Source of the DNA: an uncultured Chloroflexia bacterium
GTDB lineage: Bacteria; Chloroflexota; Dehalococcoidia; DSTF01; WHTK01
Direction of reading: 5' to 3'
Assembly (NCBI GenBank): GCA_963711035.1
Contig: CAVQCN010000001.1
Span: 1,025,942-1,089,941 of the forward strand
DNA: 64,000 bases
Both the position numbers and the translations under genes were made by a program. The notes below the pieces were generated by a model. The model did no database searches. It was not told where the DNA came from and was given only the letters and a program-made list of their open reading frames with translations. Positions 7,633 to 58,344 of this stretch are shown here, piece after piece; the first letter of the stretch is position 1, and every line of letters starts with the position of its first letter.

Positions 7633-8242
7633 TTAATGCCGGTCAAGGAGCCCGCCGTCGCCCGCGTTCGGAGGAGTGACGGTTGGCCCTTGAACCGGAC
7701 CGCAGTCGGCCAGACATGCACCCGCGTTCGTAGGAAGGGCGGTTGGCACCGCCGGAGGCGTCGCCTCTGTTGTCGGCTTGGCAGTTGGCGCCGGGCCGGC
7801 AGGAGCCGTGGTGGGGCTGGGGCCTGGCGTCGGGCAGGGGCCGGGGTCGCAGGGCGGTACGGGCGCGAAGTTGGTCAGCGTCACGCTGGTGCCGGTCGCG
7901 AGGGTGAACCACTGGTTAAACCACCAACCCTGGCCGCTCTTGAACGTGACGATGGCGCCGTCTTGCGCGCAGGCAGCGGGCTGGCCGGCGAGGCCGAGCT
8001 GCAGAACGACGTCGCTCGTGGCCGTTGAGACGTCCGCGCTGGCGCACTGCTCGCCGTCCGCGAACGCGGTGATGCTGCCGAGGCCTTGGCCCTGCGTTGA
8101 TGCCGTTGTCCGTCATGGTCTGCAGGCTGGCGGCGGGAACGATGACTTCGAACGGAGCTGCCTGCTGGCCCTGTGCCGGCGCCGCCAGCACAAGTGCCAG
8201 CAAGGCCAGTACGCCGGCGAGGCTGCCGATCGCGATGCGCAT
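7633..8242 (-). pseudogene. Second secreted Pro/Thr/Cys-rich protein, frameshifted after the signal peptide; C-terminus ...VTPPNAGDGGLLDRH
   Basis: ATG 8240-8242 (AGGAGG 7 nt upstream) gives signal peptide MRIAIGSLAGVLALLALVLAAPAQG. The frame is lost at a CCC run near 8090; the +1 frame continues ...GQGLGSITAFADGEQCASADV...PCDPGPCPTPGPSPTT... to TAA at 7633 (= track ORF 7633..7884). Confidence 0.5.
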
Positions 8243-8374
8243 AGTGAACCTCCTGGAGTCGTGGTCCCGGGCCGCGAGTCCGCCTCGGCGGAAGAGGCCG
8301 CCACGCGGCCCGGTCGCGCGACAGTGTACGAGAGCCAGCCGGGAATTACCCTGCCCGATCAGATGTTCGGGCGA

Positions 8375-8413
8375 ACCTCACCCCCTACCCCCTCTCCGAT
8401 TTCGGAGAGGGGG
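8375..8413. repeat. Left terminal inverted repeat with 11-12-bp G/C hairpin (8388-8413)
   Basis: ccccctctccg / cggagaggggg perfect stem with ATTT loop, preceded by acctcaccccc. Confidence 0.7.
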
Positions 8414-31049: not shown

Positions 31050-31373
31050 ATGAGGTTCCACCTAAAGAGACCCACCCTCAAGTCGTCGGTTCCCTGGGTA
31101 GCGCAGCTGGCGCTGGCCGCGATCCTCTTTCAGGTTACCGCCATCGATCACGACCTCGGTCTCGCCGGTGACGAGATGAACCACGTGGCGCACTCGACGC
31201 ACTGCCACGGCGCCGCTGCTGGCTGCGCGGACCAGGGCGGCATGCTCTCGCTGGCCCTGCCCCAGCTGCCGCGACTATCTACTCCCGACCCTACGCCCTT
31301 CGAGACGCACGTCGATTACGTAACTCCGGCGGAGCCCTTCCTGGGCGTTCCCTTCGAGCCTCCCCAGCTCTAG
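31050..31373 (+). CDS. Hypothetical secreted protein with His/Cys cluster (possible metal-binding), upstream of the copper cluster
   Basis: 107 aa, signal-like WVAQLALAAILFQVTA, HVAHSTHCHGAAAGC motif; no obvious RBS. Confidence 0.35.
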   Translation: MRFHLKRPTLKSSVPWVAQLALAAILFQVTAIDHDLGLAGDEMNHVAHSTHCHGAAAGCADQGGMLSLALPQLPRLSTPDPTPFETHVDYVTPAEPFLGVPFEPPQL

Positions 31374-31542
31374 ATTTCGCGGCTCCGCCGCGACGTTTAT
31401 CCATCGTTGTCCAGGCTGGTTGCGGGCGCTTTGCCTGCGGTTTCATTGCTGCTGCTCAGCGGCGGCAGAACGTTGGCCGCGCACGTGCTAGCTTGGTGTG
31501 AGCATCGGTCTCGCTTCGCGGGATCGAGGAGGATATTCCCCC

Positions 31543-32565
31543 ATGCGAAAGCTCTTTGCAGCTGTCGTCGTGTTGGGGGCGGCTCTGGTCGCCCTCGGTC
31601 CGGCGCAGCTCAGCCTGGCGCACTCGCGCCCGGTTCGTTTCGATCCGTCACCCGGCGCCGTGCTCGACGCGGCGCCCTCAACCATTACCGGCTGGTTCAC
31701 CAGCGACATTCGCAGCGACGAGAACTCGTTCATCCAGGTCCTCGACGGCTCCGGCCAACGCGTCGACCAGGGTGACACGCAGCTCAGCACTGACCGGCGC
31801 GAGATGTCGGTCGCGCTGCAGTCAGGCCTCGGTGATGGCGCCTATCTGGTGCACTGGAGCACCCACGACGACGCCGACGGCGAGGTCTTCTCCGGCTGCC
31901 ACTACATCTTTGTGGGGCAGGCGGCGGCAGACGCGGCTGCGTCGAATAGTGTCGCCCTGGACGGCGGCGCCGATTGCCCCGGCACTGTGACTGAGGACAA
32001 TGGCGGCGCTGCTATCGACATCAGCGTCAAGACCAGCGGCACCAGCGCGACCGTGACGATCAACCCAACCGACTTCACGGCGAGGGCGCCCGATGGCACC
32101 TCGGTGGACCCAAACTTCGGCCACTACCACATCTACCTGGACAAGCTACCGCTGGACCAGCTCGAAGGCGGCGACCACCACGACGACTCGGCGATGGCGG
32201 GTATGAGCGATTCGAGTACGCCGGTGGCGGATATGAGCAACTCGGCGGCAACGCCGATGGCCCAGATGGAGGCGCCGAGCGCCGACGCCGCCAACCTGGT
32301 GGAGAACCCGATCATGGCGTTCAGCAACAGCTACACGTTTACCAACCTGCAGCCCGGCGTTCACACGATCGCCGTTGCTTTGAACCACGACAACCACACG
32401 CCGTTTAACCCGCCCGTGATCGCCACGCAGAGCTTCTCCATCAAGGGCTCGACGAGCAGCAGCGGTAGCAATGGCGTGCCCTTGTGGACCTTGTTCGTGA
32501 CCGGTGGTCTGGCCGTCGTGGGCTTGGTCGTCGGCGCGTACGGCTTGACGAAAAAGTCCGCGTAA
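31543..32565 (+). CDS. CopC-domain copper-binding protein with second His/Met-rich domain and C-terminal TM anchor
   Basis: ATG 31543 (GGAGG upstream); signal peptide; CopC fold (AHSRPVRFDPSPGAVL...GAYLVHWSTHDDADGEVFSG); HYHIYLD and MAGMSDS...MSNS...MAQM segment; terminal WTLFVTGGLAVVGLVVGAYGLTKKSA. Confidence 0.8.
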   Translation: MRKLFAAVVVLGAALVALGPAQLSLAHSRPVRFDPSPGAVLDAAPSTITGWFTSDIRSDENSFIQVLDGSGQRVDQGDTQLSTDRREMSVALQSGLGDGAYLVHWSTHDDADGEVFSGCHYIFVGQAAADAAASNSVALDGGADCPGTVTEDNGGAAIDISVKTSGTSATVTINPTDFTARAPDGTSVDPNFGHYHIYLDKLPLDQLEGGDHHDDSAMAGMSDSSTPVADMSNSAATPMAQMEAPSADAANLVENPIMAFSNSYTFTNLQPGVHTIAVALNHDNHTPFNPPVIATQSFSIKGSTSSSGSNGVPLWTLFVTGGLAVVGLVVGAYGLTKKSA

Positions 32566-32580
32566 TCGTGGAGGACTGAC

Positions 32581-34936
32581 GTGAGGATGAGTGGTCGATT
32601 AGCGGCTCTGCTGTTGCTGATAGCGCTGGCGATCGGTGTTTCGATTGGCGGCGGCGATCGCGTGGCGGAGGCGCATGCCCTTCTGGTGCGTGCCGATCCT
32701 CCCGTGAACTCGCAGCTGCGCACGCCGCCGACCGAGCTCACCCTGTACTTCAGCGAGCCCCTGGAGCAGAAGTACAGCACCGTTCGGGTGGTGGACCAGA
32801 ACAACGCGCGCGTCGACGACCACGTGGAGTTCGACGACACCAACAACGCGGTGATGCACGTCTTTCTCAAGGACGTGCAGCCTGGCTACATCACGGTAGA
32901 CTGGGCGACTGTCTCGCTGGTAGACGGTCACCGAGTTACTGGCAGCTACCCACTCACCATCCTCAATCCTGACGGCAGCGTGCCGGCCGGCAAACCACCG
33001 TCGGCCGGCAGCTCCGTCAGTGGCACCAACGCTGACGTGATCCGCGTCATCGCGAAGTGGTTCATCCTGGCCGGCGCTGCCTTCCTCACCGGCGCGATGG
33101 CCTTTGTCGTCTTCATCTCGCCGATCTTCCAGGGCCCGGCTGCCGAGCGTTCCCGGCGGGCGCTGGACCGCGTCGCGCTGATAATCGCCGGTGTGTCGCT
33201 GGTGGTGATGCTGCTGGCGGGGCTCCTCGAGCTACAAAGGCAGGCGCACATCATCGGCGTCAGTATCAGCTCCGTGCTCGATACTCGTTGGGGGCGGCGC
33301 TGGCTGGCACGGCTGGTCGTCACTGGCGTCATCGTCGTGCTGACAGCCAGCCTCGTCGTTACGAAGCCCGGCTCAGCGCGCCGTCTTGTCGGCGGGCTGG
33401 GGTTCATCGGCTGCCTGGGCTTCCTGGGGCTCGTCTCGAGCGTCAGCCACAGCGCGGCAGGCGATGGCGCCTTCTGGGCGGCCGGCGCCGACTTCATTCA
33501 TCTGCTGACGGCGTCGCTGTGGATCGGACTGCTCGCCCTCATGGCCGTCATGTTCATCTACGGCCGGCGTCTGGCGGACGGTGAGCGCTACCAGGTGCTC
33601 GCGGCCGGCCTGCAGCGCTTCTCCGCGATCGCCGTGATCAGCCTGGCGCTGTTGCTGTTCACCGGCACTTTCAACGCCGTGATCGAGGTGGGACAGCTCT
33701 CCGACCTGCTGCACTCCGGCTACGGCTTCACGCTGCTGCTCAAGCTGCTGCTGATCATCCCGTTGCTGGCCGTCGGCATCGTGAACGCGTACATCCTGCG
33801 GCCCGAACTCGTCACGGAGCTGGCGGTGCCGGGCAACCCGCAGGGCCATCGAGAGACGCTGCGCCATCTGGAGGCACGGCTGCGCAACTTGATCCGGGTC
33901 GAGCTGGCGCTGGCGCTGGGTGTGCTGGCGATCGTCGCCGTGCTCGTGCAGCTGACGCCGACCCGAGGACGGCTCGATGTGGGCGGTCAGGCGGGCAAGT
34001 ACATTCAATCGATGGATCAGGATGGCATCTCCGCCACGCTGGTGGTCGACCCGAACCAGCCCGGCATCAATACGTTCGAGGTCGATATCACGGGCGCCGT
34101 CGATACGGTGCAGCAGGTGCGGCTCGACTTCACCCAGCCCGGCACCAACGAGGCGCGCCTCGTCCTCGAGGCTTCCAACTCCAACCCGGCGTATTTCTAC
34201 CTGGGCAAGGGCCCGTACCTGGGTCAGCCTGGCGACTGGCAGATCGGCGTCGACATCCGGCGCAGCGTTGGCAACGACCTGCTCCTGCCGTTCAAAGTAA
34301 CCGTGCCGGCCAGTCCGTCGGCGTCGGCAACCAGCCCGGAGAATGCCTTCGCCTTCCCTGTGTCGCTGACCGTTGGCTCGGCCGCGTTGCTGGCCCTTGC
34401 CGGCGTCCTGGCGCTGGGCTTCGTCTACGCAGGCGTGGCGCGTCCGGGCCGGCCGGGTGGCTACGCCGGCCCGATCGCGATCGGGCTGGCGGGTCATATG
34501 CCTCGCTGGCGTCCCGCGTATTCCCTCGGTGGGCTGATCATCATCGGCGTTGGCCTTGGATCTGCTATTCGGGGCTCATTCGCATTCGGCGTTGTCGAAC
34601 AAGCAGGCGACGGCGGGCAATCCCGTCCCGTCGACGGCTGCGTCGATCCAGCGCGGCGAGACGTTGTTCATGAACAACTGCACGCAGTGTCACGGCCAGG
34701 ACGGTCGCGGCGACGGGCCCCTCGCCAACTCGCTGCCTATCAAGCCCGCCAACCTGTACGACCACGTTCCGTACCACGCGGACCAGTTCTTCTTCAGCCT
34801 CATGACCAACGGCATCGCCGGCTATATGCCGGGGTTCAAGGACACGATCAGCGAGCAGGACCGCTGGAACATCCTCAACTTCCTGCGCAGCAAGTTCGGC
34901 CAGCAGCCGGCCACGTCGCTGGCCGGCTCACCGTGA
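32581..34936 (+). CDS. CopC-CopD fusion (copper resistance/transport) continuing into a class I cytochrome c domain; reading frame broken at a GGGG run near 34571-34574
   Basis: N-terminal CopC (AHALLVRADPPVNSQL...), ~8-TM CopD region; track frame decays into Arg-rich junk after ...IIIGVGLGSAI; adjacent ORF 34550..34936 has CTQCHG (CxxCH) cytochrome c domain but no signal peptide. Confidence 0.75.
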
Positions 34937-34973
34937 TGGCGGGGCGCTCGGGGCCGCGTGCTACGATGCACTC

Positions 34974-35258
34974 GTGAATGACCTGTACGAGCGCGTCGAC
35001 CAGGCGCTGGACGAGATCCGGCCTTACATCCACTCCCATGCCGGCGATGTGAACATCGTCGACGTGACCGACGACGGCGTCGTCAAACTGCAGATGGTGG
35101 GCACCTGCCATGGCTGCCCCATGAGCATGCTGACCCTGCGCCTCGGCATCGAGCGCATCCTCATGGAGAAGGTCGAGGGCGTCAAAGAGGTCGTCTCGCT
35201 ACGCCCAGACGACTTCGATTTGGAAGCGCCGGACGAGGCTGACGCCGCCGGCAGCTGA
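34974..35258 (+). CDS. NifU-like (Nfu) Fe-S cluster scaffold domain protein
   Basis: 94 aa ...IRPYIHSHAGDVNIVDVTDDGVVKLQMVGTCHGCPMSMLTLRLGIERIL. Confidence 0.8.
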   Translation: MNDLYERVDQALDEIRPYIHSHAGDVNIVDVTDDGVVKLQMVGTCHGCPMSMLTLRLGIERILMEKVEGVKEVVSLRPDDFDLEAPDEADAAGS

Positions 35259-36261: not shown

Positions 36262-37183
36262 GTGGCGAACACACTGAGTGCTGAAGATCGCATCCGGGTG
36301 ATGGAGCTCATCGCCGACTACGCCATCAATCTGGATGGCGGCTACCTCGATCGGTACGTGGGCAGCTTCACGCCGGACGCCGCACTGACGAATCGCACCG
36401 GGAGCTACGAGGGAGAGGCGACGATCCGCGACTACGTCGGACACCTGATCGAGATCGGCCAGGCGGGTCCGGCGTCGGGCATCCGCCATTTCATCGGCCT
36501 GCCGCTGCTTCAGGGCGACGGCGATTCCTGTCACGCCAGCGCCTACCTCGCGATCCCCGGCTCGCTCGACGGCGGACCCATCGTCACCTACCTGGTGGGT
36601 GTCTACGAGCTGGACTTCGTCAAGTTGGGCGGCGATTGGCGGTTCAAGATTCGTCATTCGCGTATGGACCTGATCGGCCCCGACCGTCCCGTCGGTGAAC
36701 CGGTGACCGAGCGCAGCTTCCCCGCACCGCCGCGCCGTCAGGACTCGATGAGCGCCGAGGACAAGATCGAGGTGATCGACCTGCTGGCAGGCTACGCGTT
36801 CCTGCTGGATGGCGGCGACGCTGCCGGGTACGCGGACCAGTTCACGCCGGACGGCGTCTTCGATGGCGGTGGCGATCCGGTTCGCGGCCGCGCGGCCATC
36901 GAAGAGCTCGTCAGAGGCATCGTCGAACGCAACGCCAGTCGAGGCACGAAGATGCGCCACATGATGGGCATCCCGTCGATCCGCGGCGACTCGCAGAGCT
37001 GCGAAGCGGAGACCTATCTGCTTCTCCTCCGCCAGGCTGGTGACGGGCCGATCGAGATACGGACCATCGGCTTCTACCAGGACGAGATCGTCAAGCACGA
37101 AGGGCGCTGGCGTTTCCAGAAGCGCACGTTCCGGCCCCAGATTACGGGCGGGAGAGCAAGCGGAGGACGCGGCCGGTCGGGTA
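36262..37183 (+). CDS. Tandem NTF2-like/SnoaL-like domain protein; 3' end uncertain
   Basis: Two repeats of ...DRIRVMELIADYA...LDGGDW(R)FK(I)R... / ...DKIEVIDLLAGYAFLLDGGD...EGRWRFQKRTF; the track frame has no stop until 38211 and runs antisense through lysC; a +2-frame TAG lies at 37181-37183. Confidence 0.6.
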
Positions 37184-37188
37184 GTTCG

Positions 37189-38419
37189 TCAGGCCAGCTC
37201 GGCCGGCTCTGCTTTCTCCAGCTCGAACGCCTTGTGCAGGGCGCGCACCGCGTCGGCGACCTTGTCCTCGCTGATGATGCAGGTGATGCGGATCTCGCTG
37301 GTCGAGATCATCTCGATGTTGATGCCCGCGTCGTAGAGCGTGCGGAACATGCGCGAGGCAAAGCCGGGGGCGCTCTGAATGCCGGTACCGACGATGCTCA
37401 CCTTGCCGATGCGATCGTCGGACGCCACGCCGGCGGCGTTGAGCTGCCCTGCCACGCGTTCGACGATGGGCATGGCGCGCTCGAGGTCGCCCTTGGAGAC
37501 GGTGAACGTGAGGTCGGCCAGCCCTTCGGCGGAAGCGTTCTGGACGATCACGTCGACCGAGAGGTGCGCTTCGGCCATCGGCTCGAACACGGACGCGGCG
37601 ATGCCGGGCCGGTCGGGCACACCGCGCAGAGTGATCTTCGCGACGTCCATGTCGTGGGCGATGCCGCGCACGCGGTTGAACTGCTCCATAGCGATGCCTC
37701 CGTGGATCAGGGTGCCGGGCGCCTCCGTGAAGCTCGAGGCGACGTAAATCGGGACGTTGTACACGGCCGCGATCTCGACCGACCGCGACTGCATAATCTT
37801 CGAGCCCTTGCTGGCCAGCTCGAGCATCTCCTCGTAGGTAATCTCGGGCAGCTTGCGGGCGTCCGGCTCCACGCGGGGGTCGGCGGTGTACACGCCGTCC
37901 ACGTCGGTAAAGCGCTCGCAGCGGGCGCCGAGCACCGCGGCCATGGCGACGGCGGTCAGGTCGGAAGCGCCGCGGCCCAGGGTGGTGACGTCGAGGTCTT
38001 CGGTGATGCCCTGGAAGCCCGCGATGATGACGACGCGCCCGGCGGCGAGCTCGCGGCTCACGCGGTCGGGCTCGATGCCGAGGATGCGGGCGCGGCTGTG
38101 CACGGAGTCGGTGCGCAGGCCGGCCTGGGCGCCGGTCAGGCTAGATGGCGTCGACGCCCATGTTGTGCAACGCCATCGCCATCAGCGTGCTGGAGACGAT
38201 CTCGCCCGTAGAGAGGAGGACGTCCATCTCGCGGTCGGTGGGGTTCTGGTTGATCTGGTGCGCCAGCTCGATCAGCTCGTCGGTCGTGTCGCCCATGGCG
38301 GAGACGACGGCGACGACGTCGTTGCCCTCGGCCTTGCGGCGGGCGATGCGCTGCGCGACGGCGCGGATGCGGTCGGCGTTGGCGACGGAGGAGCCGCCGT
38401 ATTTCTGGACGATGAGCAT
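37189..38419 (-). CDS. lysC: Aspartate kinase, interrupted: N-terminal 92 codons (38141..38419) and C-terminal 304 codons (37189..38103) in different frames
   Basis: [52 protein letters not shown]...HNMGVDAI* then, in another frame, [28 protein letters not shown]...VIIAGFQG...two ACT domains. Confidence 0.85.
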
Positions 38420-38502
38420 GTAGTCATCTTAGGCGAAGCGGCATTTAGGGTGAACCGGAACCTCGACGCTGGCAGCAAGCTGAGCTCATCGGGTGCCGTA
38501 TC

Positions 38503-54035: not shown

Positions 54036-54818
54036 ATGTTCCAAGATACCGACCCCGAGGAATCCGAAGAGTCCAACGGACTCTTCGGAGGCCGACCTCC
54101 TTTGCCGATCATCGGTGGTGTCATTGCCGCCGTCGTCATCGGTCTCATCCTGGTAGTCGTCGTCTTTAGCAGCGGCGGCGGCAACGACAACAACTCCAAC
54201 GCTCTTGCCACGATCACGCCGACGAGCAAGGCCCAGAGCGGTGGATTGGCGACCGGCGGTATCCCGTCGCCGCAGGGCACCCTTGATTTGACCCGCCCGA
54301 CGGTCACCGGCGCGCCCAGCCTGACCGGCGTCGGCGCCGACGATCGTATCGTCATCCCCGCCTTCAACATCAACGCGCCTCTTACTTTCAAGACGGTGGG
54401 CGCAGACGGCGAGATGCCCAACCCGGACGGACCCGATGACGTTGCCTACTACAACTTCTCGGCCTGGCCCGGTCTGGGCGGTGCTCCCGGCCAGGGCGGC
54501 AACTCCATCTTTGCCGGTCACGTCGACTCGGGTTTCAAGGCCTGCGACCACGGCACGGTCCCGCCGCCTTGCGAGGCTGTCTTCTGGGACGTGAGTAAGC
54601 TGAAGGTTGGCGACACCATCGAGATCCACGTTAGCGGGCAGGTCTACACCTACTCCGTAACCTCGAACCAGGCAGTGGATGCGAACGGCGCCGATTGGAC
54701 TAGCATCGTTTCCGCCACGGCGCAGGAGAGCATCACGCTGATCACCTGTGGTGGCGATTTCAATACCCAGACTCACGAGTACAATCACCGGCAAGTCGTG
54801 ACGGCGGTCAGGGTTTAA
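54036..54818 (+). CDS. Sortase family transpeptidase (class E/F-like), N-terminal TM anchor
   Basis: 260 aa; TM IIGGVIAAVVIGLILVVVVF; ...RIVIPAFNINAPL...NSIFAGHVD...ITLITCGG...HEYNHRQVVTAVRV (His, Cys, Arg catalytic triad contexts). Confidence 0.85.
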   Translation: MFQDTDPEESEESNGLFGGRPPLPIIGGVIAAVVIGLILVVVVFSSGGGNDNNSNALATITPTSKAQSGGLATGGIPSPQGTLDLTRPTVTGAPSLTGVGADDRIVIPAFNINAPLTFKTVGADGEMPNPDGPDDVAYYNFSAWPGLGGAPGQGGNSIFAGHVDSGFKACDHGTVPPPCEAVFWDVSKLKVGDTIEIHVSGQVYTYSVTSNQAVDANGADWTSIVSATAQESITLITCGGDFNTQTHEYNHRQVVTAVRV

Positions 54819-54882
54819 CCTCGTGCCCGCCTCCGGCGTTAGTTAGGATGGTGGCCCGGTCAGAGGCCCAGGGAGGGAACGT

Positions 54883-55755
54883 GTGAATCTGCCGGCATTC
54901 TTGGAAGGTGTTCCGCGGTGGATGCTTCTCGCCGTGATTCCGATTACGGCGTTCGTGGTGGCTGTGGGCGTGAGCTTTGGCATGAGCGGCAGCGACAACT
55001 CGACCACGAGTGGCAGCTTGAAGCCGGACGTCGGCGCGCTGGCGGAGCTGACTACGCCCACGCCTCTTCCGACGGCGACGGTCGTTCCCACCGCTACGGT
55101 GATTCCCGTTCGCACGAGTTGTGATGAGATTGCCGGAACCCCCTACCGCTCCCAGATTGAGCGCCAGTGGTACCTGGACAACTGCACCGACACCGCGGGT
55201 GCCTCCACCGGCGGCGGCGGCACCGGCGGCACCGGCGGAAGCATTGACTACTCGACGCAGGGACCGGTGAACGCCGGCGGCGGCGAGTTCGCGCTCGGTG
55301 ACGAGCTGATCATTCCGTCCATTGGCCTCGATGCGACCGTGTATGGCGACAAGGTCGGCGGCGACGGCACGATGCCGAACCCGGTTGGCTACTTCTACGC
55401 CGTGTGGTACGACTTCAGCGCCTTCCCTGGTCTCGGCGGATACGTCGGCAACGGCAACACGGTTCTTGCCGGCCACGTCGACTGCGCTCGCTGCCACAAC
55501 GGCTCGGCCGGCGCGGCGGTCTTCTGGAACGTCCGCAACCTCTCCCCCGGTGCGAGCATCCAGTACCGGACGTCGGACGGCGTGGTGCACAACTACGTGG
55601 TAACCGCGTCGCAGGACTACACGGACGCTTCGAACTGGGGAGGAATCCTTTCGTCCGGCGCTGCGGACCTGACGCTGATCACGTGTAACGGCGTCTTTGA
55701 TCCGTCTGCGCATGAGTACAACCTGCGCCACGTCGTCTACGCCAAAGCGGTGTAG
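54883..55755 (+). CDS. Sortase family transpeptidase (tandem paralog)
   Basis: 290 aa; TM LLAVIPITAFVVAVGVSF; ...LIIPSIGLDATV...NTVLAGHVD...LTLITCNG...HEYNLRHVVYAKAV. Confidence 0.85.
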   Translation: MNLPAFLEGVPRWMLLAVIPITAFVVAVGVSFGMSGSDNSTTSGSLKPDVGALAELTTPTPLPTATVVPTATVIPVRTSCDEIAGTPYRSQIERQWYLDNCTDTAGASTGGGGTGGTGGSIDYSTQGPVNAGGGEFALGDELIIPSIGLDATVYGDKVGGDGTMPNPVGYFYAVWYDFSAFPGLGGYVGNGNTVLAGHVDCARCHNGSAGAAVFWNVRNLSPGASIQYRTSDGVVHNYVVTASQDYTDASNWGGILSSGAADLTLITCNGVFDPSAHEYNLRHVVYAKAV

Positions 55756-55777
55756 ACGCCTCGAAGTGAATGAGTAA

Positions 55778-55812
55778 CGGCCCGCTCGAGTGAGTGGGCC
55801 GTTTGCGTTGCT
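55778..55812. terminator. Hairpin between convergent sortase and comE-like genes (ggccc...gggcc followed by gtttgcgtt)
   Basis: cggcccgctcgagtgagtgggccgtttgcgtt; plausible bidirectional terminator. Confidence 0.35.
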
Positions 55813-55829
55813 GAAGGTGCTGGCGCTCA

Positions 55830-56391
55830 GCGGTGCGACGAGTTGGCTGCGCAGCGTGCCGGCTGCATCCTGTGGCCGGACGCGTGGAGTCGATTCGCCG
55901 TAGTCCTCGGGGTCGACCTCGAGTACGATCAGGGCCGGGCCACCCGACGAGAGGATGCCGGGCAGCCGCTCACGCAGCACGCCGATGTCGTCGAAGCTCT
56001 CCGACTGGTGATAGCCGGCACCGCGGCCCAGCGCGGCGAAGTCGACCTTGTCGCCGCCGGGCGTGATCTGCTTGCCTGAGGTCTCGTAGACGCGATTGAC
56101 GAGGACGAAATGGTAGTAGTTGGCCGGCTCGGCGCCGGCCACGCTGGCGAGGCCGCCCAGCTGCATGAGCAGGCTGCCATCCCCATCGATGACGTAGATG
56201 CGGCGGTCGGGCTGCGCCAGCGCCAGGCCCAGGCCCAACGACGCGGCGCCGCCCATGCAGCCGATGCAGTCGATGTGGCGCTCGCCGGCGGCGCCGGACT
56301 CTGCCCAGGGCAGGACGGAGCGCATCGTCGTAACGCTGACGCCGTCGCCTTTGGTGGCGGCGATGAGCTCGATTGCCTCGTCACGCTTCAT
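55830..56391 (-). CDS. Sulfopyruvate/phosphonopyruvate decarboxylase beta-subunit-like (TPP-binding C-terminal domain); 3' end uncertain
   Basis: Internal ATG 56389-56391 gives MKRDEAIELIAATKGDGVSVTTMRSVLPW...IDCIGCMGGAASLGLGLALAQPDRRIYVIDGDGSLLMQLGGLASV...; the track frame has no stop until 54808 and runs antisense through the sortase gene. Confidence 0.6.
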
Positions 56392-56404
56392 GCTCTGGTC
56401 CCGT

Positions 56405-56920
56405 CTAGGAGGTTGGCGCGCCGAGCAGCACAATCGTAGGACAGCGCTCCTCCCGGCTCTGGATGAAGGCCTCGCGCAGGAAATGGACGTCCTCTGGACC
56501 GTCGATCAAGTAGCAGGGCACGCCGAGTGTCTGCATAACCGGCGCGATGAGGCGCGTAGCGCTGTTCTGGCGCTCGTCGATGGGCAGATTGACGTCGCGG
56601 CCGAACTGGCCGACGACCATGCAGGTCGGCACGCGCATGTCCATGGCGATGCCGCGCAAGGCGTTCATGCCAGCAAAGACGCCGACGTTCTGGATCATGA
56701 CGAGGGGGTTGGCGCCGCCCATCCAGAGACCGGCGTTGGTGCAGACGGCCTCGTGCTCGGTGCTGAGGGTGACGAGGGTGAAGCGCGGGTCTTCGGTTAC
56801 AGCCTGCAGGAGGGTGCGCTGGTGCGTGTCGGGCACATTGACGATGTGGGTCACACCCAGCGCTACGATCTCGTCGTGCAGCAGAGCGGCCGGTACCGAC
56901 TGGACTACGGGAGTGGTCAT
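56405..56920 (-). CDS. Sulfopyruvate/phosphonopyruvate decarboxylase alpha-subunit-like (TPP enzyme N-terminal domain)
   Basis: Internal ATG gives MTTPVVQSVPAALLHDEIVALGVTHIVNVPDTHQRTLLQAV...CTNAGLWMGGANPLVMIQNVGVFAGMNALRG...; immediately upstream of the beta-like gene. Confidence 0.7.
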   Translation of the reverse strand: MTTPVVQSVPAALLHDEIVALGVTHIVNVPDTHQRTLLQAVTEDPRFTLVTLSTEHEAVCTNAGLWMGGANPLVMIQNVGVFAGMNALRGIAMDMRVPTCMVVGQFGRDVNLPIDERQNSATRLIAPVMQTLGVPCYLIDGPEDVHFLREAFIQSREERCPTIVLLGAPTS

Positions 56921-57008: not shown

Positions 57009-57100
57009 GGAGAGGTGGCAGAGTGGTTGAATGCGGCGGTCTCGAAAACCGTTATACGGGTTCTCTCGTATCCAGGGTTCGAATCCCTGCCTCTCCGCCA
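57009..57100 (+). tRNA. tRNA-Ser (anticodon CGA), type II with long variable arm, CCA encoded
   Basis: GGAGAGG acceptor 5' arm / CCTCTCC 3' arm + G + CCA; D-loop AGTGGTTGAA; anticodon loop CT-CGA-AA; variable stem-loop CGTTATACGGGTTCTCTCGTATC; T-arm CAGGGTTCGAATCCCTG. Confidence 0.9.
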
Positions 57101-57259: not shown

Positions 57260-58265
57260 CTAGGCTTCGGCGAAAAGGACCTGCATCTTCTTCGCAGCGT
57301 CAGCATGGATGGCTGGCGTGACGTGGGAGTAGGTGTCTAGCGTCAGGGTGACTGTGCTGTGGCCGAGCAGCTCCTGGACGATCTTGGGGTTCTCGCCGCG
57401 GGCCAGGTAAAGGGTGGCTGCGGTGTGCCGCAGGTCGTGCACACGAACGCGCGGCAGGCCAGCGCGGCCGAGGATTCGGGTGAGGCAGGGCCCAGGCGAG
57501 CTTCTCTTCGATCTGCTGGCGTCGGTGCTCCCGCAGCGCCTGGGCGGTCCCTTCCGGGAAGTAAACGGTTCTCCGGCTCTTGGTCGTCTTTGGGCCAACG
57601 AAGACGAGGCCGACACCCTTTTGGCGTTGCAGAGCGCGCCGGACAATGAGGCGATTCTGGTCCAAGTCGAACTCGTCCCAGCGTAACCCAGTGGCTTCAC
57701 CAACACGGAGGCCGGTGGAGGCGAGGAGCACCCAGAGGGCATGCAGACGATGATCCTGTGTCGCCGGAAAGAAGCGCCTGACTTCGTCTTCGCTGAGAGT
57801 GTGCATCTCGTTGCGTTCGGGTCGAGGCACGCTCACCGCTTCGGAGGGATTTCGACCGATGGAGCCCCACTGCACCGCTCTCTCGAGAGCTTTGTGCAGA
57901 ACAGTGTGGACTTGGACCACAGAGCGTCGGCTGAGGCCACGTTCGATTAGATCGGCGTATGCTCGTTCGATTGCGGCCGGGGTGAGTGTGCTCAGACGAA
58001 TGCGGCCAATCAACGGCTTCAGGCGCCGAACGTTGAGGTCGTAGGACTCGTAGGTTCGCGGCCGTACGCTGCCTTCTTTAGCCCCGAGAAGTCTTCCGCG
58101 AGCATGAAGGCCACAAGACTGACCCACATGATCCATTCGTCCGGGAAGAACGGCGTCCGGGCTGGGCATCAATCGCTCGGTCGAGCGATAGCCCGTACGC
58201 CGTCCAAGGCTAGATTCGCCTATCCAAACGGCTCTCTTCGAGTGCCGATTGGACGCTTCGCCCAA
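57260..58265 (-). pseudogene. Tyrosine-type integrase, disrupted: N-terminal/core in 57300..58265, catalytic C-terminus in a different frame (57260..57742)
   Basis: Frame A: ...LRWDEFDLDQNRLIVRRALQRQKGVGLVFVGPKTTKSRRTVYFPEGTAQALREHRRQQIEEKLAW then junk; frame B: ...LGRAGLPRVRVHDLRHTAATLYLARGENPKIVQELLGHSTVTLTLDTYSHV...*. About 25-30 aa normally found between these segments are missing. Confidence 0.8.
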
Positions 58266-58344
58266 AACTCTGTGACGACCGACTTGCTATTTCAGCCCAC
58301 CAGGGCGATGTATGTCGTCGCCTTTGAAAGGAGGGCTGAGAAAC

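Follow-up and report, generated by a model that had tools for sequence, protein, structure and literature searches.

One extra base splits a CopC–CopD–cytochrome c gene of an uncultured Chloroflexota bacterium, probably through an assembly error

For copper import by YcnJ and CopD, whether and where Cu(II) is reduced is stated to be unresolved (PMC12362106). Uptake through YebZ of Escherichia coli needs two conserved, outward-facing histidine residues (PMC11923076). About 4% of proteobacterial CopD proteins, including one of Methylosinus trichosporium OB3b, contain a cytochrome cbb3-type domain and, after it, a Sco1/thioredoxin-like domain (PMC11923076). Cytochrome c552 is a His/Met mono-haem protein with an unusually exposed haem and is the electron partner of a tri-copper thiocyanate dehydrogenase; its surface residue His83, beside a haem propionate, was proposed as the electron-transfer residue (PMC9456337). 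We analyzed a stretch of 64,000 nucleotides (the window) from an uncultured Chloroflexia bacterium (GCA_963711035.1, contig CAVQCN010000001.1, positions 1,025,942 to 1,089,941). It carries a CopC–CopD–cytochrome c gene that is split by one base. The intact protein appears to be a YcnJ-type CopC–CopD–YtkA copper importer extended by a transmembrane (TM) hairpin and a haem module.

The open reading frame (ORF) list of the window contains an ORF at 32581..34977 on the plus strand, encoding 798 aa. The gene starts at GTG 32581 or ATG 32587, and a Shine-Dalgarno sequence, GGAGGA, is located at 32569-32574. After the residues GVGLGSAI, the frame lost its coding character. The Arg content was 16% in this tail versus 6% upstream, the log-odds of a codon-usage model were −82 bits versus +358 bits for the part upstream, and the G+C content at third codon positions (GC3) fell from 0.84 to 0.52. 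A protein homologue search aligned no homologue to the tail. The first-pass annotation, made from the sequence alone, had called it Arg-rich junk, and these values agreed with that description. The cytochrome frame had no stop between 34538 and its TGA (34934-34936), with codon log-odds of +63 and a GC3 of 0.91. Within it, ORF 34550..34936 contains a CTQCH motif at 34679-34693 and matched Pfam Cytochrome_CBB3 (3.8e-11) and Cytochrom_C (1.5e-09). Its sole possible start is TTG 34550, with no Shine-Dalgarno sequence ahead. The N-terminus of its 128-aa product is not hydrophobic and has neither signal peptide nor anchor, so the earlier description of a CxxCH cytochrome lacking its own export signal was correct. 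Removal of one base gave a single product of 784 aa, where ~785 aa had been expected. The features of the gene were as follows.

32581..34573 (+): frame-A part, with signal peptide, CopC, CopD, YtkA-like domain, TM9 and TM10 (ORF list, Pfam, codon log-odds, start context).
34554..34576 (+): interval with the extra nucleotide, including GGATCTG at 34558-34564 and GGGG at 34571-34574 (deletion scan, conservation of Gly664/His666, codon-level comparison with the syntenic loci L001 and L002).
34571..34936 (+): frame-C part, with a G-A-H-S-H motif and a class I cytochrome c, ending at the TGA (Pfam PF13442 and PF00034, conservation, PDB, AlphaFold2, codon log-odds).
34575..34977 (+): out-of-frame ORF tail of ~134 codons, non-coding (Arg content, log-odds, GC3).

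The deposited protein of this gene (P0001, 796 aa; NCBI, ENA) is the window's own product with the ATG start and includes the junk tail; therefore, the extra base was already in the public assembly. As a result, the public record lists a "CopCD" of 796 aa that ends in a nonsense tail, and it lacks the cytochrome.

The repaired protein was used as the query of a homologue search, which returned 170 relatives at E <= 1e-10. Ninety-one of them were full-length, being 727-878 aa long with a C-terminal CxxCH, and all conservation figures below are from this set. All 91 had CopC, CopD and cytochrome c in a single chain, with identities of up to 57%; in the closest relatives, 95-99% of the query was covered. 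A hidden Markov model (HMM) was built from these intact homologues only. The product as deposited scored 818.8 bits, whereas the repaired products scored 1053.8-1057.4 bits, a gain far beyond chance. This confirmed that one CopC–CopD–cytochrome c gene is cut by one extra nucleotide. Genomes were also scanned with a haem-motif pattern, CHGx[TSD]G[RHT]GDG. Among the matches listed, uninterrupted genes were present in many Dehalococcoidia, other Chloroflexota, Thermomicrobia and Limnocylindria.

Two syntenic orthologues were available, and each was one ORF (L001, 4465..6804, 779 aa; L002, 6551..8947, 798 aa). In the window, L001 and L002 alike, DnaE (minus strand) is followed by a small His-rich ORF, the gene of an anchored CopC-domain protein, the fusion gene and NifU. 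Flanking genes were 75-80% identical between the window and the two loci, a range that includes DnaE, NifU and aspartokinase; the fusion gene was ~52% identical to its orthologues. The segment TM9–loop–TM10 was the least conserved (35-37%), and CopC (63-70%) and then the cytochrome (64-66%) were the best conserved. As the homologues and the two syntenic orthologues carry the same domains without interruption (~780 aa), the fused protein is, judging from these comparisons, the native state.

A sister clade without the cytochrome was also found (P0088-P0093, ~640 aa; loci L081/L082, 3001-4932). Its members are CopC–CopD–YtkA proteins that end shortly past TM9 and have no TM10. Their genes are neighbored by genes of NHL/SGL beta-propeller-like proteins, and no cytochrome genes were found downstream of these cytochrome-less homologues. 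The homologues showed the fused form rather than separate copCD and cytochrome genes, and a separate-gene model was dropped. Because the sister clade ends after TM9 with no cytochrome gene nearby, TM10 and the cytochrome appear to behave as an optional module.

To locate the extra base, every single-base deletion was scored against the HMM. Any one-nucleotide deletion within ~34554-34576 restored the gene, with the following representative junctions.

Deletion at 34560-34562: GVGLGLLFGAH, 1057.4 bits.
Deletion at 34568-34570: SAIGAH, 1055.3 bits.
Deletion in the G run: SAIRAH, 1053.8 bits.

The score differences are a few bits, and the lesion is localized to ~34554-34576 and no finer. The residue following TM10 is Gly in 76 of 91 homologues and Arg in none; after one further residue comes His (79 of 91). 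Both syntenic orthologues have L-G-x-x-x-G-x-H at this place. In the window, GGG GCT CAT encodes G-A-H and is already in the cytochrome frame, so the codons suggested that the frame switch is more likely 1-14 nt upstream of the G run. The deletion at 34560-34562 also fitted the L002 sequence GGA CTC TGG CTC GGC GGT CAC best. The first-pass annotation had placed the extra base, as a G, in the GGGG run at 34571-34574. One extra base in an interval that includes this run was supported; its assignment to the run itself was unproven and slightly disfavored, SAIRAH having the lowest score and losing the conserved Gly.

The whole window was then tiled with the codon log-odds model, and each same-strand passage of the coding signal from one frame to another was checked. 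Two more single-base insertions were detected, one in an aspartokinase gene and one in a gene for a secreted protein. The aspartokinase is divided between ORF 38141..38428 (minus strand, 95 aa), which covers positions 1-100 of the AA_kinase profile, and ORF 37189..38103 (minus strand, 304 aa), which covers positions 114-234 and the ACT domains. The first part ends with GVDAI and a stop codon, and the sequence resumes one frame over; the L002 orthologue is continuous there (...GVEAISLSGAQAGMRTSSVH). The context of the lesion is GCC ATC T AGC on the minus strand (38141-38150). A one-base deletion at this site gave a 408-aa aspartokinase that shared 77% identity with the syntenic L002 orthologue across 404 residues.

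The secreted protein (7633..8377, minus strand), to which no function was assigned, has a signal peptide and an FEVxxP motif in one frame and a Cys-containing core, LGSITAFADGEQC, with a Pro/Thr-rich tail in the other. The junction is at ~8077-8110. In all four homologues (P0121-P0124), both parts are in one chain; the core domain is duplicated in some of them, and the repaired protein and P0123 (174 aa) are collinear.

Other candidates were rejected as single-base frameshifts. An integrase/tyrosine recombinase gene (57260..58286, minus strand), which adjoins tRNA-Ser(CGA) at 57009-57100 (plus strand), also lies in two frames, but ~18 profile positions are missing between its halves, which is an internal deletion. 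The gene is genuinely decayed and is probably what is left of an integrated element. NuoA/B/C, AmtB/P-II, Usp/BON and two ECH genes had complete domains and normal operon junctions. Separately, two ORFs, 36262-38211 (plus strand) and 54808-56505 (minus strand), run ~350 codons past their domain ends into the antisense strand of a neighboring gene. The former encodes a protein with tandem SnoaL_4 domains, which end at aa 289, and the latter encodes the beta subunit of a thiamine pyrophosphate enzyme resembling sulfopyruvate/phosphonopyruvate decarboxylase. Both may have lost their natural stop codons through further insertions or deletions (indels) near the 3' end.

A homopolymer error at the G run was considered and discarded as an explanation. 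The window contains 225 G4 and C4 runs, and the aspartokinase lesion lies in ATCTAG, which has no run of three or more identical bases. Since the errors were not specific to homopolymers, GGGG was given no special prior. The best-fitting extra bases of CopCD (GG[ATC]TG, 34558-34564) and aspartokinase (CCAT[CT]AG, coding strand, 38141-38149) are both in an ATCT tetranucleotide. This may be a context-specific basecalling error or a coincidence, as the motif is common.

We estimate a probability of about 0.7 that an assembly indel produced the one-base break that separates TM10 from the haem domain and that the cell makes the intact fusion of ~784 aa. Three independent +1 insertions were present in 64 kb, including one in aspartokinase, and this argues for such an error. 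The source contig is 1.3 Mb long (1,295,826 bp), which suggests an assembly from long reads. None of the three is in a long homopolymer, and conserved sequence continues downstream each time. In the fusion gene, the 121 out-of-frame cytochrome codons keep every invariant residue, including N680, G692, C700, C703, H704, H728, H732, D734 and M749. An interpretation of the split as a biological event was therefore not supported.

Several points weigh against an assembly error, and most of them are shared with the best surviving alternative, a genuine and very recent frameshift. In that case, the CopC–CopD–YtkA protein would end at TM10 plus a nonsense tail of ~134 residues, the haem domain would be lost, and the gene would be a fresh pseudogene or truncation. 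The call of an artefact is circumstantial, being drawn from sequence and not from reads. The extra base is present in the deposited sequence, P0001 being identical down to the junk tail, and the searched collections held no second assembly of the window's species, the best other match having 57% identity. At least one gene in the window, the integrase with its internal deletion beside tRNA-Ser, is truly decayed, and three frameshifts in ~55 genes could be explained by a lineage that accumulates pseudogenes. The cytochrome-less clade P0088-P0093 suggests that loss of the haem module is tolerable in evolution and that the core is workable without it. The fusion gene also evolves fast, with ~52% identity versus ~78% for its flanks. 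However, 121 downstream codons with no stop, all invariant residues and a GC3 of 0.91 mean that such a mutation would be extremely recent. Two further +1 insertions in conserved genes within 64 kb are hard to explain independently in a free-living bacterium, and the natural cytochrome-less forms stop after TM9, not after TM10 and a long tail. We consider a genuine mutation unlikely, though clearly the most serious competitor of the assembly error.

A functional break, by a programmed +1 ribosomal frameshift or by separate translation of the cytochrome from the internal TTG 34550, is very improbable: it is favored only by both frames being open with the downstream one intact, whereas none of ~90 homologues and neither of the two syntenic orthologues changes frame there, the 0 frame continues for 134 codons with no stop, rare codon or stall signal past the site, no Shine-Dalgarno sequence precedes the TTG, the 128-aa product could not be exported for haem attachment without a signal peptide or anchor, and the same one-base lesions in unrelated genes speak against a dedicated signal.

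Two other public members of the family had damage of a similar kind. P0100 has several Cys/Arg-rich nonsense stretches that alternate with conserved sequence, and P0046 breaks off within the cytochrome domain. The assembly of the window is not the only one with frame errors in this family. With CopCD–cytochrome, aspartokinase and the secreted protein all broken, gene content inferred from the window's genome would under-count intact genes.

The anatomy of the intact protein was derived from Pfam, conservation in the 91 homologues, hydropathy and an AlphaFold2 model (mean predicted local distance difference test score (pLDDT) 82.5, predicted template modelling score 0.72).

32581..32673 (+): signal peptide, aa 1-31 (hydrophobic peak aa 7-25, AlphaFold2 helix 5-22).
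32674..32958 (+): CopC beta-sandwich, aa 32-126 (Pfam PF04234, 8.8e-16, 59.1 bits, cut-off 23.3; AlphaFold2 35-127).
33028..33960 (+): CopD core of eight TM helices, aa ~150-460 (Pfam PF05425, hydropathy, AlphaFold2).
34000..34305 (+): YtkA-like extracytoplasmic beta-sandwich, aa 474-575 (AlphaFold2 strands; PDB 9LL2, "copper resistance protein", E=1.4e-5 by profile).
34372..34437 (+): TM9, aa ~598-619, outside to inside (hydropathy peak 601-619, AlphaFold2 helix 598-618).
34513..34572 (+): TM10, aa ~645-664, inside to outside (hydropathy peak 645-663; AlphaFold2 helix 646-664, pLDDT <50).
Within 34571..34936 (+): cytochrome c, aa 688-770 (AlphaFold2 pLDDT 84-95 over aa 681-770).

Cleavage of the signal peptide after A-E-A is predicted to expose His32 as the mature N-terminus. 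Candidate ligands of a Cu(II) histidine brace in CopC are H32 (98% conserved), D115 (100%) and H117 (100%). The best PDB match of this domain was the CopC domain of Bacillus subtilis YcnJ (9C14, E=6.1e-22). The alignment with 9C14 pairs profile position 32 with the first residue of that structure, which is consistent with a Cu(II) histidine brace. By its profile, its predicted mature N-terminal His and its Asp/His pair, the domain would belong to the C0-1 class of CopC, which binds Cu(II) only. The CopD match to PF05425 spans aa 344-455 (6.6e-20, 71.9 bits versus a cut-off of 32.1). Eight hydrophobic peaks and eight long AlphaFold2 helices (153-455, pLDDT mostly >87) were observed, and H290, D304, H307, W314 and E441 are invariant. 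A YtkA-like domain follows CopD, as in YcnJ. The match to PF13115 was below threshold here (E=0.14, 13.2 bits, profile positions 4-84 of 85) and above the cut-off in the homologues P0101 (33.4 bits) and P0107 (31.9 bits).

TM9 and TM10 are joined by an Arg-rich loop (aa 620-644) that is predicted to be cytoplasmic. It has four Lys and Arg residues, no Asp or Glu, and a short AlphaFold2 helix (629-639). In TM10, L652, G656, L659 and G660 are conserved among the homologues, and a conserved G-x-H-x-H/D motif (aa 664-668) is located at its outer end. TM10 is predicted to serve as both membrane anchor and export signal of the haem domain. By prediction, the chain crosses the membrane ten times from the exported CopC to the cytochrome, and the charge of the TM9–TM10 loop is positive. 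These features place the haem domain, as a prediction, on the outer side of the membrane, as haem attachment needs. Both the outward orientation and the dependence of the haem domain, which has no export signal of its own, on the preceding helix had been proposed earlier, and the ten helices found by hydropathy and AlphaFold2 agree with them.

The cytochrome domain scored 43.6 bits against PF13442 and 39.5 bits against PF00034, and the protein ends 14 residues past it. Its haem-attachment residues C700, C703 and H704 are 100% conserved, the axial Met749 is 99% conserved, and H728, H732 and D734 are invariant. These residues are characteristic of a His/Met mono-haem class I c-type cytochrome, for which haem binding and redox activity are predicted.

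The genes next to the fusion were also inspected.

31050-31373 (+): 107-aa ORF with a His/Cys-rich stretch, HVAHSTHCHG (syntenic in L001, L002 and L005).
31498..32565 (+): membrane-anchored CopC-domain protein of 355 aa, with a DUF4399-like HYHIY region and a predicted C-terminal anchor (Pfam CopC 1.9e-10; DUF4399 below threshold).
34974..35258 (+): NifU-like gene (Pfam NifU 1.4e-23; next to the fusion gene in L001 and L002 too, at 78-80% identity).

The 107-aa ORF had no Pfam match. The CopC-domain gene lies 15 nt before the fusion gene, occupies the same position in L001 and L002, and encodes a protein with a predicted mature N-terminal His. Both upstream genes are likely to belong to the copper system of the fusion gene, and the NifU-like gene is probably outside it.

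The arrangement of the domains suggests how the protein might work. CopC would capture Cu(II), and on the outer side of the membrane the tethered haem domain would receive respiratory-chain electrons. It would hand them to copper, either at the histidine brace of CopC or at the entrance of CopD (His290/His307). The resulting Cu(I) would be translocated by CopD, and reduction would thereby gate import. The haem domain could in this way be a built-in cupric reductase. We advance this only tentatively and with less than even confidence, the direction of the electrons and their acceptor being inferred. Two points count against it. The haem might instead oxidize Cu(I) or serve a thiol or Sco-type chemistry, as hinted by the proteobacterial fusions, and TM10 was modeled at low confidence (pLDDT <50). 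The more general proposal of the first-pass annotation, redox-coupled copper handling, is a reasonable inference and has some support from the closest solved cytochrome.

If copper is reduced in this way, the recurrent, independently organized CopD–cytochrome fusions would mark the missing reduction step of CopCD/YcnJ uptake, and the CopC–CopD–YtkA–cytochrome family would be a natural single-polypeptide system for testing copper reduction. As a candidate for the site of Cu(II) reduction, a transporter that includes a haem domain is obvious and convenient for experiments; the idea did not originate with this window. The intact CopC–CopD–YtkA–cytochrome c proteins of Chloroflexota form a large, uncharacterized family, to which Proteobacteria have a counterpart of different build. 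The family is abundant in sequence databases, its members are labeled "copper transport protein" by JGI, and no functional study of a CopC–CopD–YtkA–cytochrome protein was found in the literature. The practical results are a corrected gene model, a warning of indel noise in this assembly, and a family in which the site of copper reduction can be tested.

Among known systems, B. subtilis YcnJ (PMC12362106, PMC13344008) has the same order of CopC, eight-TM CopD and extracytoplasmic YtkA-like domain, and its mature N-terminal His and Asp/His ligands are likewise kept in the window protein. YcnJ lacks TM9, TM10 and the cytochrome, all present in the window protein, in which the YtkA match is below threshold. 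The window locus has no ycnI or ycnK neighbors and instead has the upstream anchored CopC/DUF4399-like protein. The E. coli pair YobA–YebZ (PMC8689200, PMC11923076) also combines a CopC-type Cu(II) binder with an eight-TM CopD, but the two are separate genes and have neither YtkA nor cytochrome. By analogy, H290 and H307 of the window protein may be equivalent to H135 and H154 of YebZ.

The closest solved relative of the haem domain was cytochrome c552 of Thioalkalivibrio paradoxus (PDB 7O9U and 9VR0; E~3e-20 with the single sequence and ~1e-31 (3.7e-31) with a profile). According to the alignment offsets, Cys55, Cys58 and His59 of 7O9U correspond to C700, C703 and H704, Met103 to M749, and His83 to the invariant H728. 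Cytochrome c552 exchanges electrons with a copper centre and has the CxxCH, axial Met and surface His in common with the window's haem domain. It differs in being free in the periplasm, in having a signal peptide of its own and disordered, His-rich ends, in accepting electrons from thiocyanate dehydrogenase and in being unlinked to copper transport.

The OB3b-type CopD fusions (PMC11923076) resemble the window protein in having a c-type cytochrome C-terminal to CopD. In them the cytochrome comes straight after CopD and is followed by a Sco1/thioredoxin-like domain of ~200 aa with a His-rich tail, whereas in the window protein YtkA, TM9 and TM10 precede the cytochrome and the chain ends there with no Sco domain. 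In our haem-motif scan, the order CopD–cytochrome–Sco/thioredoxin-like was present in Alphaproteobacteria, Acetobacteraceae and Vulcanimicrobiota among the matches listed. The novelty of a triple fusion, implied by the first-pass annotation, did not hold, as ~90 database proteins from several phyla have it and CopD–cytochrome c fusions are described in PMC11923076. CopC–CopD fusions and YcnJ are already well described, and the Chloroflexota build of YtkA, TM9, TM10 and cytochrome differs from the proteobacterial one while following the same idea.

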